IMG/VR virus record: IMGVR_UViG_2648501318_000010
Span: 1-29,133 of that record
Length of the DNA: 29,133 bases
Direction: 5' to 3' (one strand)
Source: a virus
Lineage: Duplodnaviria; Heunggongvirae; Uroviricota; Caudoviricetes
In this document: piece by piece, positions 13,336 to 25,198 of the stretch
Layout of the letters: every line of letters starts with the position of its first letter
Position numbering within the stretch: the stretch's first letter is position 1
Made by a program: the position numbers and the translations under genes
The notes under the pieces: generated by a model
Database searches by the model: none
What the model was told of the DNA's origin: nothing
The model's input: the letters and a program-made list of their open reading frames with translations, nothing else

Positions 13336-14088
13336 TCACAAGGTAATATCGCTGTCTTTAATATTATTATTGACTTTCGCCCTTAGTACAGCAACTTGAA
13401 TAACAGCAGGAATTGTTACTCGATAAGCAGTTCCTCCCACATCTACAATGGTCCATGCGGCTGTTATAGCCCAACCAATTGGGCCTGTTAAAATAGATAA
13501 TGCTTTTACGAGTATTTGATTACCTGCGAGTGTTAAACCGCGTCCAATTAAAATTTTTAGTAAAAGATTCGCAAATTTAAGAGTTACCTGATAAGATCTG
13601 AAACCGCCGGCCCTGAAAATATATTGGAAGGCAGATAGAACTGCCTCAGGAGTAAATCTTGTAACTTCATCCAATCCAAGTTCCATGGCAAAAACTTTTA
13701 TATCTTCGGATGACATGTTATCTAGAGAGTCGCTGAGAATTTTTAATAGAAGATTTTGTTCAATAACCTCTATTCGGCTCTTGGCATTGAAATTAACCTT
13801 TAGCTTATTGCATACATCAATGAGAATTTCTCTGTAGCAGACCCCTTTACCACCACGCAAGAGAGTTGCTATGGTATTTCCACCATAACATTGAATTTCA
13901 GCAGCAATTTCTCTCCAATATACGCTATGTCTTGGTGCAAATTCCTTATATTGTCGATTGTTAGATAACTCTTCAGTCCATCTTTTTTTGCCATCGTTAT
14001 CATAAATCAATAGGTTAACTAAATCATCAAGATCACGGTCGCTACATTTAGCTAGGAATTCAAGATCGCTGTCTTTTCTGTATGCCAT
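13336..14088 (-). CDS. YaaW-like protein (DUF3944 N-terminal region plus UPF0174-type C-terminal region), function unknown
   Basis: 250 aa with a GGAG RBS 7 nt upstream of the ATG. The N-terminal DSDLEFLAKCS motif and C-terminal GTAYRVTIPAVIQVAVLR motif resemble E. coli YaaW as I recall it. The C-terminal third is hydrophobic and the coding region is AT-rich. Confidence 0.55.
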   Translation of the reverse strand: MAYRKDSDLEFLAKCSDRDLDDLVNLLIYDNDGKKRWTEELSNNRQYKEFAPRHSVYWREIAAEIQCYGGNTIATLLRGGKGVCYREILIDVCNKLKVNFNAKSRIEVIEQNLLLKILSDSLDNMSSEDIKVFAMELGLDEVTRFTPEAVLSAFQYIFRAGGFRSYQVTLKFANLLLKILIGRGLTLAGNQILVKALSILTGPIGWAITAAWTIVDVGGTAYRVTIPAVIQVAVLRAKVNNNIKDSDITL

Positions 14089-14103: not shown

Positions 14104-14577
14104 TTAAATCAAGTCATCTCTTAGATTTTTAGCTACAACCATATAAAATGTTGCATATTTCATAATAATATCATCAAATTCTTTGTCTAAAACACTTCCA
14201 AGTTTCCCGTCTATAAATTTCCTCATAACGTTATTCATTCCATGTGTTTTAGCAAATATATTTTTTCCGTCTATTAAATTATCATCCTCAACAGGAGAAT
14301 AAGATACACTCCATCCACATTTGATTAAGTTTTTTGCCGATTTTGTGGAAATATCAAGAAGTATGGTTGCATCAATATTAATGATTTTACAGAATTTCAT
14401 CATATTCTCTACAGAGAGAGAGGACTTACCATTTTCAATTTTTCCCCAGCCGGCACTTGTTATCCCAAGGCCAGATGCAATGTCTGATTGAGTAACACCA
14501 TGCTTCTCGCGAAAATCGCGAATATGGAAAGCCAATATAGTTAAATAGGATGTTTTCATATGGGTAATGATACTCAC
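14104..14577 (-). CDS. XRE-family helix-turn-helix protein with a C-terminal domain of unknown function
   Basis: HTH_XRE signature (GVTQSDIASGLGITSAGWGKIENGKSSLSVENMMKFCKI) in the N-terminal half. Its stop is 15 nt upstream of the YaaW-like ATG, so the two form an operon. The true start may be the ATG at 14559 (the track start at 14577 is GTG); neither has a clear SD. Confidence 0.6.
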   Translation of the reverse strand: MSIITHMKTSYLTILAFHIRDFREKHGVTQSDIASGLGITSAGWGKIENGKSSLSVENMMKFCKIINIDATILLDISTKSAKNLIKCGWSVSYSPVEDDNLIDGKNIFAKTHGMNNVMRKFIDGKLGSVLDKEFDDIIMKYATFYMVVAKNLRDDLI

Positions 14578-14706: not shown

Positions 14707-15825
14707 TTATTCAGCCGCCACCGGTTTTAACAAGCCAGCATCGAGCAGTTTACGCGTCAACCACTGCTGGCCTTTACCCGTTAATTGAGGCGTCAACCGT
14801 ATCTGGTAGCCATCTTCATCATCCAGCACCACTTCTTTCACCGTGAAATATCCCGCATTGATGTACTGCTGGAACGGCACATTTTTACGTCCACCGGACG
14901 CTATCAGGATGCCGTTCTCCCGTAACCAGGCAAACAGCGCGTTTTGCTTAAGACCAACAACCTTTGCAAAATTCCCAATCAGGATCCCTTTAGCTACTGA
15001 TACCCGGTCGGCAAAATCGACCTTAGGGGCTGCGGCCACCAGCTGCTGATTTAGCTGGTGGGCTTTCTGTTCCAGAAGCTGCTTTTGTTCAGCCAGTTCG
15101 GCAGCCAGGCGCAGAGCTTCTGGAAGCGTCTGGGGGATTGCAACCGGTTGCTGTTCTTTTTGCCGGAAGTAGCTGTCTTCCAGTTTTTCAAAGAATGCCC
15201 ATGCCTGATCGGTTTCGAGCATTTTAGCGTGGCGGGCTGCGCCGCGTTCTGTCCAGAGGGTGAGTGAGCGAACATTGCGAGCAATTTTTACAGAGTAGTT
15301 TAAAGCTACTCTGTGCTTCAACTCGCGCAATGATTCTCCTTCAACTTTGAAAAAGTGCTTCCCTTCAACAAAGCGTACTTTGTTCTCATGATGATTTTGG
15401 CGAATACGGATTGTTTCTGTCCCATACCCTCTAGCAAGAGTCTCGGTTGTCACTACACGCACTCCCTGCCATTCCAGAACGGGAATTTCATCAGACTGAT
15501 TCTGAACAACCACCAGCTCCGATTCCTGAACTGAAGGTGCATAAATTTTTTCTGATTTAACGTTAGTTGCTTTCATTCTGTGTGCCTCCTTGCGTGCTTC
15601 GGCTGCGGCGGTTGCGTAATTCAGATGACCCTGTTCGAGCAGGTATTCGCGGATATCAGACAACAGGATACGGTGAACCGCGTTCTTGTCCTTTCTCCGG
15701 TAAAGTTGTTTGGTGATCATGAAGTAGTTGGCAATAACGCCTGGTATATCCCTGGTACTGATACAGGCAGTGTGCTGTTCAATTGCCTCGATCATCTCTT
15801 CACGGGTGACTAATGACGTTCTCAT
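14707..15825 (-). CDS. ant: Phage antirepressor (Ant-like; KilA-N/ORF6N-type domain plus KilAC/ANT C-terminal domain)
   Basis: 372 aa. The central region resembles the ORF6N/KilA-N DNA-binding domain and the C-terminus (FAKVVGLKQNALFAWLRENGIL...) the antirepressor KilAC domain. It is preceded by a translationally coupled small ORF and a c4-like RNA region, as in P1 immI. Confidence 0.7.
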   Translation of the reverse strand: MRTSLVTREEMIEAIEQHTACISTRDIPGVIANYFMITKQLYRRKDKNAVHRILLSDIREYLLEQGHLNYATAAAEARKEAHRMKATNVKSEKIYAPSVQESELVVVQNQSDEIPVLEWQGVRVVTTETLARGYGTETIRIRQNHHENKVRFVEGKHFFKVEGESLRELKHRVALNYSVKIARNVRSLTLWTERGAARHAKMLETDQAWAFFEKLEDSYFRQKEQQPVAIPQTLPEALRLAAELAEQKQLLEQKAHQLNQQLVAAAPKVDFADRVSVAKGILIGNFAKVVGLKQNALFAWLRENGILIASGGRKNVPFQQYINAGYFTVKEVVLDDEDGYQIRLTPQLTGKGQQWLTRKLLDAGLLKPVAAE

Positions 15826-16043
15826 AGTCCCTCCTGAACAGAAGCGTTAACAGGGAGGCACCAGTAACTGAGAGAATTGCGCGAGTCAGTAGAAAAGCGT
15901 GCGGAGAAAATGCAGGGAGCATCCGGAAGCTGAGAACGTGCCTCATCTTCTGTTGTTGCGATAACGAAGTGATAGTGACGTTTCTGGCAGGAGTAAAAGC
16001 GCCAGATAAATTCAGGGCGTGCGCAAGGATTGGCATTAACCAT
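15822..16043 (-). CDS. icd: Small icd-like ORF translationally coupled to ant
   Basis: 73 codons from the ATG at 16043, with GAGG 8 nt upstream. Its TGA stop overlaps the ant ATG (ATGA). In P1 immI a small icd ORF overlaps the ant start and is the target of c4 antisense RNA. Confidence 0.5.
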   Translation of the reverse strand: MVNANPCARPEFIWRFYSCQKRHYHFVIATTEDEARSQLPDAPCIFSARFSTDSRNSLSYWCLPVNASVQEGL

Positions 16044-16094
16044 AGTTACGGCCTCGTAAGTTGATAAAACAACCTGCGACCCGCTGCTAAACAG

Positions 16095-16200
16095 GTGGCA
16101 GGACGTGACGGGGTTAGCAGACTGGCACTTACGAAACCAGCAGGCCGAAGCCTCCCCATCACGCCCCACCATAATTCGGGCGTAACGTGGTTATACGGAC
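16095..16200 (-). ncRNA. c4: c4-like antisense repressor RNA (boundaries approximate)
   Basis: On the minus strand the segment CGGCCT-(8 nt)-CGTAAGT (plus-strand about 16127..16147) is exactly complementary to ACTTACGAGGCCG, which covers the icd-like RBS (plus-strand about 16049..16061). It sits inside a GC-rich region that can fold into stem-loops and lies downstream of the C1 operator pair. This is the a'/b'-a2/b2 arrangement described for P1 c4 RNA. Confidence 0.4.
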
Positions 16201-16344
16201 ATGAAAATACCGCAATATCGGATATCTGCGGTTGTCCGCGTAAGTATTCAGGCTGCTAAACCCGGTCGCAGAATTTGCTACGACGGCATGAATATAAGCC
16301 TGAACGGTAAGGAGATCAATAGGGCTATGCGCAATGGTAGGATA

Positions 16345-16377
16345 TTTGCTCTAATAAATCAAATTTATTAGAGCAAT
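16345..16377. promoter_or_regulatory. Overlapping inverted pair of C1-repressor operators (Op51-like)
   Basis: TTTGCTCTAATAAATCA (16345..16361) and, on the other strand, a perfect ATTGCTCTAATAAATTT (16361..16377). The pair lies upstream of the c4/icd/ant unit and about 100 bp upstream of the divergent lipoprotein gene. Confidence 0.65.
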
Positions 16378-16476
16378 GAGGGTTGTGTGTTATTTTTGCT
16401 CATGTTGAGCGTCATGGAGAATTGAAATTTGTTTAAAACCTTGGCAACCTACTGTTTTTAATGCACTTAATAAGGT

Positions 16477-16794
16477 ATGCAGATGAAACTAGGTAATTTG
16501 TTAGCCGCAGCTATCGTTTTAACGATAACTGCATGTGCCGGAAAAGCTGAAAAAGACCCGCAATATGTAGCCGCAGAGAAATGTGCAGATTTAGTTATCA
16601 CAAAATCAAAAGCTCTGGCAGAGAAAGGCATCAGTGGAAATTACGAGTTTACATCAAAACTGCGCACAACTTCGACGTCTGATGGTCCATTCACATCAAC
16701 ACAAATCAGAGGCATTCCTTATGCAACCTCTACGTTTCTTGATAACGGTAATGAGGGGAGTGCCTGGAGACAATGTATGGGGCAGCTATTGTAA
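16477..16794 (+). CDS. Small secreted lipoprotein, function unknown
   Basis: 105 aa; N-terminal signal peptide with a lipobox (LTITAC, Cys at about residue 20); no homology recognised. Confidence 0.55.
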   Translation: MQMKLGNLLAAAIVLTITACAGKAEKDPQYVAAEKCADLVITKSKALAEKGISGNYEFTSKLRTTSTSDGPFTSTQIRGIPYATSTFLDNGNEGSAWRQCMGQLL

Positions 16795-16827
16795 GAATGA
16801 GTTGTTCCCCAAAAGGATTTGGGGATG

Positions 16828-17496
16828 TTAAAAATAGTTTCCCTTCCCAGTTAAGATTCCGTGTGGAACGCTTTTTTCCGCAAGTCTCTGTGTGCCGCGA
16901 ATTATGTTAATCAGAGGGCTTAGTAACGATGGTTCCTGGCGTGCCTCAACTTCTCCAGCCATTGCCCTGATGTAGTCGGAGCTTGCAACGTTGTTGTATT
17001 CCGTTGCGAAGCAGCATAACAACGTCAGAACGTGCTCTGTCGTTATTTCGCTCCAGTTGATGTTGAAAAATTCATCGCCTTTTTTGTCATGTTCGGAATC
17101 GAAGATGCTTTGGTGAAGGATGTATTTGCCGGATTCCTTGCGCGGTAACTTGATCGCTTTCTGGCGTTCCAGTTCCTTGTAAATCTGCATTGCTTCAATC
17201 AGTACCGGTCTGCCGTTCATGAAGGGATCACGCAACCTTACACGCTGGCCAACTCGACCGGTAATAAAGCTGTTTTCCTCTTCCACCAGCACGATAAAAC
17301 CCTTTTCCTCTTTTTCTCGCAATTCGCGCAGCAGCTGGAGTTCCATATCGCGGCGGCGTTCAGGGTAGCTGGTCCGCTCAGCCATTATCAGCTCATTGTT
17401 GATCCATGCGGCAGTCATTGACGCCGGTTTGCCGACGCTCATCGAAACAACGCATATTTTCTTATCCATAGCGCCCCTACAAAAAAGAAAAGCCAC
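16828..17496 (-). CDS. Hypothetical protein at the position of P1 mat, downstream of ref
   Basis: ORF downstream of ref on the same strand; the likely start is the ATG at 17469 (GGGG 5-8 nt upstream). An AACAAGTGA-like late-promoter motif lies upstream. No recognisable domain; assignment by synteny only. Confidence 0.45.
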   Translation of the reverse strand: MAFLFCRGAMDKKICVVSMSVGKPASMTAAWINNELIMAERTSYPERRRDMELQLLRELREKEEKGFIVLVEEENSFITGRVGQRVRLRDPFMNGRPVLIEAMQIYKELERQKAIKLPRKESGKYILHQSIFDSEHDKKGDEFFNINWSEITTEHVLTLLCCFATEYNNVASSDYIRAMAGEVEARQEPSLLSPLINIIRGTQRLAEKSVPHGILTGKGNYF

Positions 17497-18323: not shown

Positions 18324-18340
18324 CAATCAATTAGAGCAAT
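18324..18340 (-). promoter_or_regulatory. C1 operator-like site upstream of ref
   Basis: Minus strand ATTGCTCTAATTGATTG (11-nt core match), about 100 nt upstream of the ref ATG; ref is known to be C1-controlled in P1. Confidence 0.5.
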
Positions 18341-20361: not shown

Positions 20362-20378
20362 AGAATTATTAGAGCAAT
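20362..20378 (-). promoter_or_regulatory. C1 operator (immC Op99-type) between loxP and coi
   Basis: Minus strand ATTGCTCTAATAATTCT. Confidence 0.6.
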
Positions 20379-20444: not shown

Positions 20445-20461
20445 ATTGCTCTAATAAATTA
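20445..20461 (+). promoter_or_regulatory. C1 operator overlapping a promoter reading toward coi/c1
   Basis: ATTGCTCTAATAAATTA, immediately preceded by a TTGACA -35 hexamer (20439..20444) and overlapping a TATAGT -10-like hexamer. Confidence 0.7.
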
Positions 20462-20699: not shown

Positions 20700-20909
20700 A
20701 TGGCTTTCATTCCACCAACCATCGACGACGTTAGACATTGCTCTAACGCTTTATCTGTAGACCCCGCCGAAACCGACGCTGCCCGCGCCATTGCTGAACA
20801 CTACTCAAAGATATCCAATCAGGAGTACCGCATCACCCAAGACGACCTGGATGATCTCACTGACACAATCGAATATCTCATGGCCACTAACCAGCCAGAC
20901 TCACAATAA
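20700..20909 (+). CDS. coi: Coi, C1-inactivator protein
   Basis: 69-aa ORF directly upstream of c1 with operators upstream; size and position match P1 coi. An operator-like ATTGCTCTAACG sequence lies inside the ORF (about 20737..20753). Confidence 0.8.
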   Translation: MAFIPPTIDDVRHCSNALSVDPAETDAARAIAEHYSKISNQEYRITQDDLDDLTDTIEYLMATNQPDSQ

Positions 20910-21019
20910 ATGCACTAATAAATCTATTATTTTCGTTGGATCCTTCTATAATGGTGGCCAACAACTCCCAGTGTAATCCGCTGTGAGTTGTTGGCCATGT
21001 CAATTCTGGAGGAGGATCA

Positions 21020-21871
21020 ATGATAAATTATGTCTACGGCGAACAACTGTACCAGGAGTTCGTCAGCTTCAGGGATCTCTTTCTAAAAAAAGCTGTTGCA
21101 CGCGCCCAACACGTTGATGCCGCCAGCGACGGTCGTCCTGTACGCCCGGTTGTCGTTCTGCCGTTCAAAGAAACTGACAGCATTCAGGCTGAAATTGATA
21201 AATGGACTTTAATGGCGCGGGAACTGGAACAGTACCCAGACCTCAATATCCCAAAGACTATTTTATATCCAGTGCCTAACATCCTTCGCGGTGTGCGTAA
21301 GGTTACAACTTATCAGACAGAAGCTGTGAACAGCGTCAACATGACCGCTGGCCGCATTATTCATCTGATTGATAAGGACATTCGCATCCAGAAAAGCGCG
21401 GGGATCAATGAGCACAGTGCGAAATACATAGAGAACCTGGAAGCAACAAAAGAGCTAATGAAGCAGTACCCGGAGGATGAAAAATTCCGTATGCGTGTAC
21501 ACGGCTTTAGCGAAACAATGCTGCGCGTCCATTACATTTCCAGTAGCCCTAACTACAATGATGGTAAATCAGTTAGTTACCATGTGCCGCTGTGTGGTGT
21601 GTTTATCTGCGATGAAACTCTCCGTGATGGAATCATCATCAACGGTGAATTCGAGAAAGCAAAATTTAGCCTTTATGACTCTATAGAACCGATCATCTGC
21701 GACCGCTGGCCGCAGGCAAAAATATATCGCCTGGCAGATATTGAAAATGTAAAAAAACAAATTGCCATCACTCGCGAAGAGAAAAAGGTCAAATCAGCCG
21801 CATCAGTTACGCGCAGCCGTAAAACTAAGAAGGGGCAGCCAGTAAACGACAACCCCGAAAGCGCGCAATAG
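21020..21871 (+). CDS. c1: C1 repressor of lysogeny
   Basis: 283 aa, the size of P1 C1; N-terminus MINYVYGEQLYQEFVSF as I recall for C1; flanked by coi, operators and loxP. Confidence 0.9.
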   Translation: MINYVYGEQLYQEFVSFRDLFLKKAVARAQHVDAASDGRPVRPVVVLPFKETDSIQAEIDKWTLMARELEQYPDLNIPKTILYPVPNILRGVRKVTTYQTEAVNSVNMTAGRIIHLIDKDIRIQKSAGINEHSAKYIENLEATKELMKQYPEDEKFRMRVHGFSETMLRVHYISSSPNYNDGKSVSYHVPLCGVFICDETLRDGIIINGEFEKAKFSLYDSIEPIICDRWPQAKIYRLADIENVKKQIAITREEKKVKSAASVTRSRKTKKGQPVNDNPESAQ

Positions 21872-25181: not shown

Positions 25182-25198
25182 CAATACATTAGAGCAAT
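25182..25198 (-). promoter_or_regulatory. C1 operator-like site upstream of lpa
   Basis: Minus strand ATTGCTCTAATGTATTG, about 70 nt upstream of the lpa start. Confidence 0.55.

Follow-up and report, generated by a model that had tools for sequence, protein, structure and literature searches.

Is a small gene that lies beside two binding sites of a phage repressor controlled by that repressor, or is it an independent unit? This question is raised by a stretch of viral DNA of 29,133 nucleotides (IMG/VR record IMGVR_UViG_2648501318_000010, positions 1 to 29,133; hereafter the window), which is part of a P1-like phage-plasmid. On its plus strand, at 16477..16794, the window carries an open reading frame (ORF) for a predicted lipoprotein of 105 aa, located next to a pair of operator-like sites of the C1 repressor. 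The region is 100% identical to several Escherichia coli plasmids, including pSvP1 and p2017.15.03CC. A previous sequence-only reading of this DNA had placed the gene under the C1 operators.

The reading preferred here, held tentatively and with somewhat less than even confidence, is that the gene is a self-contained mobile cargo ("moron") cassette for a periplasm-facing lipoprotein, which landed in a variable slot, is expressed independently of C1 and has a partner in the cell envelope. It is favoured since the unit is compact, low in guanine-plus-cytosine (GC) content, present or absent in related elements, found on both phage and plasmid backbones, and codes for an envelope protein. On this reading the annotation is corrected in two respects: the operator goes to the divergent anti-repressor operon and the lipoprotein gene becomes independent cargo.

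A separate low-GC cassette

Homology of the window to P1, P7, SJ46, RCS47 and other P1-like phages covers positions 16204-16387 and ends at ~16387. Homology to F-type plasmids, at ~90% identity, covers positions 16398-16916. Since these two boundaries are located within 10 bp of each other, 16388..16397 is taken as a module junction. The break in P1-type homology and the onset of F homology mark the lipoprotein gene, together with its 80-bp leader, as a separate low-GC cassette; its GC content is 38-40%, compared with 47-52% on both flanks. The part of the cassette preceding the gene (16398..16476, plus strand) is common to F-type plasmids and contains the best promoter candidate and the Shine-Dalgarno (SD) sequence, as seen in the alignment to F and pUMNK88_Ent.

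The lipoprotein gene

Two start codons come into consideration. Translation from the first ATG (16477) yields the 105-aa product and translation from the second one (16483) a product of 103 aa, the form annotated in most database records of the gene. Because the SD sequence AAGG (16472-16475) is spaced 7 nt from ATG 16483 and only 1 nt from the first ATG, the 103-aa product is the likelier one, and the gene probably occupies 16483..16794 (from 16477 if the product has 105 aa). The small lipoprotein gene proposed in the sequence-only reading is thus real, with a probable product of 103 instead of 105 aa.

Lipoproteins were recognised by a basic n-region, a hydrophobic h-region, a lipobox of the form [LVI][ASTVI][GAS]C and a cysteine within about the first 35 residues. 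The window protein displays these sequence features of Lgt/LspA substrates. Its N-terminus consists of M(QM)KLGNLLAAAIVLTITA followed by CAGK, with the canonical lipobox ITA-C, and the stretch MKLGNLLAAAIVLTITA, succeeded by the cysteine and AGK, fits a lipoprotein pattern in the style of PROSITE PS51257. The signal peptide and lipobox noted earlier are therefore predicted by this rule as well; the codon of the putative lipid-modified cysteine is located at 16534-16536. When 22 family members were compared with the same rule, 16 passed it, three had type-I signal peptides and three were truncated. Sorting of lipoproteins is described by the "+2 rule", according to which residue +2 (Ala vs Asp) decides between outer- and inner-membrane location. 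Judged only by Ala at this position, the window protein is probably sorted to the outer membrane.

Protein family and predicted structure

The PHROG 16031 profile matches the window protein over residues 1-105 of 105 (E = 7.1e-72), and all 22 family members tested belong to it as well. As this family is annotated as unknown function, membership gives no function. Scans of the window protein and 22 relatives against Pfam, NCBIfam and PADLOC returned no informative family, a profile search against PDB sequences returned no match, and no solved or viral predicted structure resembles the AlphaFold2 model in fold comparison. The lipoprotein likewise had no tblastn match among 50,697 phage records. 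The earlier statement that the product lacks recognisable homology thus holds for Pfam, NCBIfam, PADLOC, PDB sequences and fold. It fails with respect to PHROG 16031, the F-plasmid homologue and the remote relatives.

A word-indexed search retrieved close E. coli relatives only. Exhaustive HMMER search yielded 23 cluster representatives, about 20 of which are remote (27-61% identity, mostly 100-130 aa). Further members were detected in Providencia, Buttiauxella and Scandinavium by profile search, and in Dickeya, Photorhabdus, Silvania, Leclercia and Pseudescherichia by genome scan. Remote relatives are spread across Enterobacterales.

Alignment of the family reveals six invariant residues (C36, Y82, D89, G94, W97 and C100), which are kept even in relatives at ~30% identity, and a C-terminal motif, IPYxxSTxLDNGxPGSAWRxCM. 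The AlphaFold2 model, built from a 21-sequence alignment, consists of a helix (28-49), a hairpin (56-69/72-85) and a second helix (95-104). Its mean predicted local distance difference test (pLDDT) value is 78.6, and most 10-residue blocks of the mature domain reach 90-96. Since the two invariant cysteines are placed on the two helices of the model, a Cys36-Cys100 disulfide is suggested. The family is uncharacterised, though of a familiar kind, that of phage/plasmid cargo lipoproteins.

Distribution, the F-plasmid homologue and selection

The cassette was found in 101 plasmids, ~17 of them P1-like (at least 95% identity) and 84 mostly conjugative IncF/F-type plasmids (~90%). The gene is intact in ~100 plasmids of these two unrelated backbones. 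Among 5426 complete E. coli genomes, the cassette is present in 94. Carriers include heat-labile (LT) enterotoxin plasmids of porcine enterotoxigenic E. coli (ETEC), such as pUMNK88_Ent. Sporadic presence and atypical composition, both expected of morons, are found here: ~17 of roughly 600 P1-like plasmids carry the gene, its GC content is low, and further copies reside on F-type plasmids.

One of these copies is a hypothetical ORF of the classical K-12 F plasmid (NC_002483 2214-2531; WP_250911031 / WP_000802277), situated between srnB and the finO-interrupting IS3. It has the same lipobox and length as the window gene, 88% identity in amino acids and ~90% in nucleotides over the gene, the 80-bp leader and ~120 bp downstream. 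In contrast to the window gene, it belongs to a conjugative plasmid backbone that is not homologous to the operator region or immI, and it has a relic of mat beside it. The 3' end of mat (16828..16916 in the window, minus strand) also lies downstream of the lipoprotein gene in F-type plasmids. In F, this relic (L004, NC_002483 2094-2180) comprises 88 bp that adjoin the lipoprotein gene and have 85% identity with the 3' end of P1 mat. Because the two are neighbours there, the simplest reading is that a P1-like element, where gene and mat were adjacent beforehand, donated ~520 bp to F-type plasmids. The relic would then be a record of gene flow from a phage-plasmid to conjugative plasmids. No name for the F-plasmid homologue and no study of it were found in the literature. 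One of the best-studied plasmids carries an intact, selected and unstudied gene beside a relic of a P1 gene.

The window gene and the F-type copies differ by 15 synonymous and 11-13 non-synonymous changes, which corresponds to a ratio of non-synonymous to synonymous rates (dN/dS) of 0.20-0.24. This ratio therefore indicates purifying selection in both P1-like and F-type backbones. The SD sequence, the lipobox, the dN/dS value, the invariant family residues and the confident AlphaFold2 model together identify the ORF as a genuine gene.

These data bear on the notion that the gene is a functionless passenger, hitch-hiking with the adjacent immI-like block and neither expressed nor selected. That no function, known fold or strong promoter was found would be in keeping with it. 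The dN/dS value with its 15 synonymous differences, the residues that stay invariant at ~30% identity, the confident fold prediction and the intactness of the gene in ~100 plasmids on two unrelated backbones all contradict it, and we regard a mere passenger as very improbable.

The perfect C1 operator belongs to the divergent operon

The window was scanned for C1 operators with the 17-bp P1 consensus. Eight operator-like sites were detected, compared with 0.16 expected by chance. One of them, ATTGCTCTAATAAATTT (16361..16377, minus strand), is perfect (17/17, 0 mismatches). The other site next to the lipoprotein gene, the half-site TTTGCTCTAATAAATCA (16345..16361, plus strand), is weaker (14/17) and overlaps the perfect one by a single base. 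The pair ends 99 bp before ATG 16477, in agreement with the distance of about 100 bp given in the sequence-only reading.

The perfect operator aligns with P1 Oc4 at 48140-48156, is its orthologue and is conserved in four sister plasmids. According to the P1 GenBank annotation, from which P1 features were taken, Oc4 (former Op51) is monovalent and overlaps the -35 element of P51a, a promoter of c4-icd-ant, and the sim operon is transcribed divergently on the other side of Oc4/Op51. The window has the same layout on its minus strand. A P51a-like promoter (TTGATT-17-TACCAT, 16334..16362, score 11.1), equivalent to P1 P2c4/P51a, lies under the operators and is accompanied by a P51b-like promoter (TTGATC-17-TATATT, 16291..16319), equivalent to P1 P1c4/P51b. 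The immI-like operon to the left of the lipoprotein gene is complete. It comprises, all on the minus strand, the a1b1 C4 targets (16245-16297) and the C4 antisense RNA (16091-16176), both recognised by Rfam (matches for the C4/a1b1 region: RF01695, 70.8 bits; RF03163, 54.6 bits), an Icd-like ORF (15822-16172; in sister plasmids annotated as an icd of 222 nt, at about 15822-16043) and ant, coding for a KilAC-type antirepressor (14707-15825). The divergence of the lipoprotein gene from an immI-like module, as described earlier, is thereby borne out. Since the perfect operator is an Oc4/Op51 orthologue that overlaps the P51a-like promoter on the other strand, it is assigned by orthology to the divergent c4-icd-ant (anti-repressor) operon.

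The overlapping pair reported in the sequence-only reading exists in the sense that both sites were found, but its weaker member is degenerate in three of the four sister plasmids (~6-7 mismatches), which keep the lipoprotein gene, and is absent from P1. Because of this decay in three sisters, and because Oc4/Op51 is annotated as monovalent, the pair as such is, by comparison of the sister plasmids, specific to the lineage of the window. The half-site is intact only in this lineage, has ~4 mismatches in pEC21Z048 and is decayed in the other three sisters. It makes the monovalent P1-type Oc4 an overlapping inverted pair that covers the spacer of the P51a-like promoter. The second half-site may tighten C1 control of the extra anti-repressor operon.

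Promoter candidates of the lipoprotein gene

A consensus scan for promoters and terminators gave no plus-strand promoter and no terminator for the lipoprotein gene. Candidates were obtained with our own weight-matrix scan, for which the background in the window is 1.6 per kb at scores of at least 8 and 5.7 per kb at scores of at least 6. The best plus-strand candidate is TTGAAA-17-TGgCAACCT (16422-16450), with the -35 element at 16422-16427, TGn at 16442-16444 and the -10 element CAACCT at 16445-16450. It falls within the cassette, separated from the operator by 44 bp, is also conserved in F and pUMNK88_Ent (scores 9.6, 8.8 and 9.3 in the three aligned sequences, 9.6 being that of the window), and predicts a transcription start near 16457. 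Two other plus-strand candidates are TTAAAA-18-TTTAAT (16433-16462, score 7.1) and a weak extended -10 sequence, TGtTATTTT (16388-16396, score 6.3-6.8), whose -35 region is inside the perfect operator. No P1 late-promoter box is present upstream of the lipoprotein gene, the nearest one being LPmat at about 17617. Upstream of the remote homologues, the weight-matrix scan gave no consistent promoter position.

A gene controlled by C1 is expected to have an operator at its own promoter. In the window the operator overlaps the P51a-like promoter of the opposite strand, and only the weak candidate overlaps it on the plus strand. Consequently, the view that the gene is placed under the C1 operators finds little backing: the operator is Oc4/Op51 of c4-icd-ant, and the best promoter candidate is found 44 bp beyond it. 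Moreover, the cassette is under selection in F-type plasmids that lack homology to the operator region and to P1 immI. C1 control of the lipoprotein gene is not supported by these comparisons, and its C1-independent expression appears more likely than C1 repression.

The opposite view, in which the C1 operators do overlap the promoter of the gene, would leave the gene silent in the lysogen and switch it on at induction or early infection. Its product could then block a receptor in the manner of Llp, against superinfection and against inactivation of progeny on debris. Such control would be in agreement with the position of the perfect operator, which ends 99 bp upstream of the ORF and is doubled in the window, and with the extended -10 sequence at 16388-16396, which has its -35 region in the operator and would give a leader starting roughly where F homology begins. 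In the P1 annotation, too, a promoter may be regarded as controlled by an operator that lies slightly upstream of it, Omat being an example. That candidate, however, is weak (6.3-6.8, where scores of at least 6 occur 5.7 times per kb), the operator is orthologous to that of c4-icd-ant, and the second half-site is decayed in sister plasmids that retain the gene. Purifying selection in F-type plasmids without the operator region or P1 immI, and the lack of similarity to Llp- and Cor-type families beyond the signal peptide, argue in the same direction. We therefore consider this alternative unlikely, though not negligible.

A variable slot next to c4

To the right of the lipoprotein gene, mat, ref, c8 and cre follow in convergent orientation, as in P1. 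In P1, mat is followed by res-mod; here the res-mod locus is held by the whole immI-like block, which is not at the canonical immI locus. Variation is concentrated at the res-mod locus, a published hot spot named RD-1, where icd-ant homologues were noted in pSvP1 (PMC6906374). The lipoprotein gene is carried by pSvP1 together with the immI-like block at this locus. In the four sister plasmids the order is darB, two small ORFs, (JukA-like and helix-turn-helix (HTH) genes, optional), ant, icd, operator, lipoprotein gene, mat, ref, c8 and cre, with ref unannotated in one of them.

When the P1 sequence (L009:1287-3200) was compared with ~600 P1-like plasmids, sim-c4 homology was seen to break at discrete points, namely where simA starts, at the outer edge of Oc4/Op51 and ~70 bp inside, many of the breaks being at the operator edge. 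The whole sim operon is kept in only ~135 of the 600 plasmids. Because homology breaks at discrete points and few plasmids keep sim complete, the slot divergent from c4 is recognisable as a recombination hot spot with varied cargo.

The lipoprotein gene thus shares its position with the P1 sim operon (simA-simB-simC), which is likewise divergent from c4-icd-ant across Oc4/Op51. SimC is an exported envelope protein, and sim provides superimmunity. P1 sim comprises three genes and SimC (264 aa) is not a lipoprotein, whereas the window has a single lipoprotein gene. Hhalign comparison with P1 SimC gave a probability of 0.2% and no sequence similarity, so that only the genomic position is common to both. 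Other proteins of comparable type are T5 Llp and Cor of phi80, N15 and HK022, small phage lipoproteins that are also predicted to reside in the outer membrane. Unlike them, the window family includes chromosomal, housekeeping-like members, and it shows no significant sequence match and no fold match to Llp or Cor. Cor (PHROG 1119) was considered as a candidate family and rejected: the window protein has no hit, and only two of the 22 members, both of them remote, have hits with E = 0.006-0.01, one of them restricted to residues 1-37, i.e. the signal peptide.

These comparisons are relevant to the proposal that the gene encodes a Cor- or Sim-like exclusion protein, made constitutively in the lysogen and blocking a receptor or DNA entry from the periplasm. 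Such a role would agree with the location of the gene in the slot of P1 sim, with a small predicted outer-membrane-type lipoprotein as in the case of Cor and Llp, with the weak hits of two of the 22 members to the Cor PHROG (E about 0.006-0.01) and with the prophage moron positions of remote homologues described below. On the other side, the hits to Cor lack family-wise significance, one of them being confined to a signal peptide, and hhalign against SimC gives nothing. Nothing in the dN/dS value of 0.2 hints at an arms race, and stable chromosomal members outside prophages, with their strongly conserved C-terminal motif, fit a conserved partner better. Exclusion of this type is in our opinion quite unlikely. 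The suggestion of receptor blocking or superinfection exclusion after the example of Llp and Cor, made in the sequence-only reading, thus retains the argument of position, a variable cargo slot that holds sim in P1, and finds no support in sequence or fold.

Genomic contexts of remote homologues

Four prophage groups have the homologue beside the terminase genes, where it stands by itself on the opposite strand and on the side towards the lysis genes. The latter were identified in two of the groups, as a holin, endolysin and spanin-like set (Providencia prophage) and as a holin (L034). In lambda, bor holds the slot beside the lysis and packaging genes. Several temperate phages hence have relatives of the window gene in their standard cargo slots. 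Outside E. coli, the nearest relative (61% identity) is a solitary gene surrounded by phage-like genes, in Enterobacter plasmids of about 88 kb.

This Enterobacter relative was observed on contigs of ~86-89 kb (L026-L028) and in NZ_CP085744 and NZ_CP074151, non-mobilizable plasmids of ~88-91 kb. These plasmids carry Tad2-like, Ead/Ea22 and DUF968 phage-type genes and may constitute another phage-plasmid group.

Lambda Bor and plasmid Iss resemble the window family in being small lipoproteins encoded by a lone opposite-strand gene on temperate phages and F-type plasmids, and the Bor slot beside lysis and packaging genes is the slot of the remote homologues. Membership in Bor/Iss was rejected: none of the 22 members has a hit to Pfam PF06291, and hhalign aligns only 14 columns of the signal peptide (lipobox) at 23% probability. 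P1 Mlp and Rz1-type o-spanins were rejected as well, hhalign again detecting only the lipobox (15% probability); the gene stands alone between mat and the operator.

The protein could nevertheless act as a Bor/Iss-like host-fitness factor, conferring resistance to serum, lysozyme or bile, with no role for the phage. Its distribution over temperate phages and F-type virulence plasmids, including LT plasmids of porcine ETEC, and the presence of remote homologues in exactly the bor slot would be expected under this alternative. Homology to Bor is missing, however, as just described (lipobox only, 23%; no PF06291 hit), and members occur in plant- and insect-associated genera, Dickeya and Photorhabdus. 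We assign a host-fitness role of this kind a low probability.

Chromosomal members are stand-alone genes in varied contexts. Of the roughly eleven chromosomal contexts that are independent of one another, three have a gene for a peptidoglycan enzyme as the neighbour. An MltF-like gene with SBP_bac_3 and SLT domains precedes the homologue on the same strand, at a distance of ~23-70 bp, in two metagenome contigs, in three genomes of Scandinavium and in a record labelled "Chryseobacterium". A gene with an SLT domain is divergent from the homologue in Enterobacteriaceae bacterium RIT691, and an L,D-transpeptidase gene is located directly upstream of it in Buttiauxella sp. B2. Since SLT-domain proteins number only a handful among several thousand enterobacterial genes, recurrence of such neighbours by chance is unlikely, with the caveat that the sample is small and was not assembled systematically.

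The MltF-like gene (loci L022, L023, L040, L041, L046 and L048; the further peptidoglycan-enzyme loci are L037 and L039) is itself preceded by a redoxin/DsbD-like gene, and in most loci by an MsrA-like gene, too.

Possible function of the lipoprotein

Given the low dN/dS and a motif that is also found in the chromosomal members, the partner is more likely to be a conserved component of the cell than a variable receptor surface. In this respect the family may be compared with inhibitors of cell wall hydrolases (T4 Spackle, Ivy, MliC/PliC and PliG), which are likewise small, exported or lipidated, disulfide-containing, sporadic in distribution and equipped with a short conserved loop motif. A further likeness is that some members of the window family are encoded by the side of lytic transglycosylase or L,D-transpeptidase genes. 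Spackle is a periplasmic inhibitor able to give superinfection exclusion. Spackle, Ivy, MliC/PliC and PliG show no sequence or structural similarity to the window family, and the likeness, drawn from gene neighbourhood, is speculation.

Under the cargo reading that we prefer, a horizontally mobile cassette of ~430 bp (16398-16826) would have landed in the variable cargo slot that extends from the end of mat to the outer edge of Oc4/Op51. The operator would regulate the divergent c4-icd-ant operon, and the lipoprotein gene, with a promoter of its own, would be expressed in the plasmid-prophage state without involvement of C1. Its product would be exported through Sec and receive its lipid at Cys20; as residue +2 is Ala and not Asp, Lol would probably deliver it to the outer membrane, into the inner leaflet. 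The domain of ~80 residues facing the periplasm would form a beta-hairpin between two helices, held together by the likely Cys36-Cys100 disulfide. The protein would bind a conserved component of the envelope; an enzyme that remodels peptidoglycan, of the SLT lytic-transglycosylase type, is the most plausible candidate. By such binding it could shield or condition the carrier's envelope, for instance against incoming phages or plasmids whose entry requires peptidoglycan to be cut.

The steps of this scheme differ in weight. The ORF, its lipobox and conservation, the limits of the cassette, its distribution and the contexts of its relatives were observed directly, whereas membrane sorting, disulfide, promoter, time of expression and molecular target are deduced. 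Binding of a peptidoglycan-remodelling enzyme, which is derived from gene neighbourhood, is taken on its own an improbable guess. More daring is the idea that PHROG 16031 represents a new class of lipid-anchored proteins that inhibit or regulate SLT-type lytic transglycosylases in the periplasm. Stand-alone copies on temperate phages, phage-plasmids and the F plasmid would then serve to blunt the peptidoglycan-cutting enzymes of incoming phages, of conjugation machines or of type VI effectors and would provide Spackle-like exclusion by a new fold; we treat this idea as a long shot. If action on peptidoglycan enzymes or exclusion turned out to be true, a new type of protein would be added to the envelope-level defences of mobile elements.

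Several observations weigh against the cargo reading. The score of the best promoter candidate, 9.6, is not significant alone, as scores of at least 8 occur at 1.6 per kb, and the weaker candidate at 16388-16396 puts its -35 region under the perfect operator, which makes C1 repression possible. Downstream, between the convergent lipoprotein and mat genes, a hairpin conserved in the F plasmid (CCCCAAA-AGGA-TTTGGGG, 16807..16824) has no T-run on either strand, is not called as a terminator and is not canonical. With regard to the transcriptional independence expected of a moron, the cassette thus offers an F-conserved promoter candidate that does not stand out by score and a hairpin lacking a T-run. 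Lipidation, outer-membrane sorting and the disulfide are rule-based predictions. Finally, the link to peptidoglycan enzymes concerns only three of roughly eleven chromosomal contexts, and other contexts (bhsA/yciI-tonB, DeoR, HipA, ComEC, ABC transporter) have no such neighbour.

Further features of the window

Two genes to the left of ant are among the features that vary between the sister plasmids. They are located at 13336-14088 and 14104-14577, both on the minus strand, and comprise a gene for a DUF3944 protein, matched strongly by the JukA models of PADLOC (E = 3e-66), and an adjoining HTH regulator gene. No JukB match was seen beside the JukA-like gene. The window, pSvP1 and pEC21Z048 have the pair, three sister plasmids lack it, and it resembles an optional cargo for defence at the P1 res-mod locus.

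The six remaining C1 operator-like sites are located at 1978-1994, 18324-18340, 20362-20378, 20445-20461, 20909-20925 and 25182-25198. One of these sites is situated upstream of ref, as is Oref in P1. Three others are clustered upstream of the ORF at 21020-21871, which by synteny with p2017.15.03CC is the annotated C1 repressor gene.

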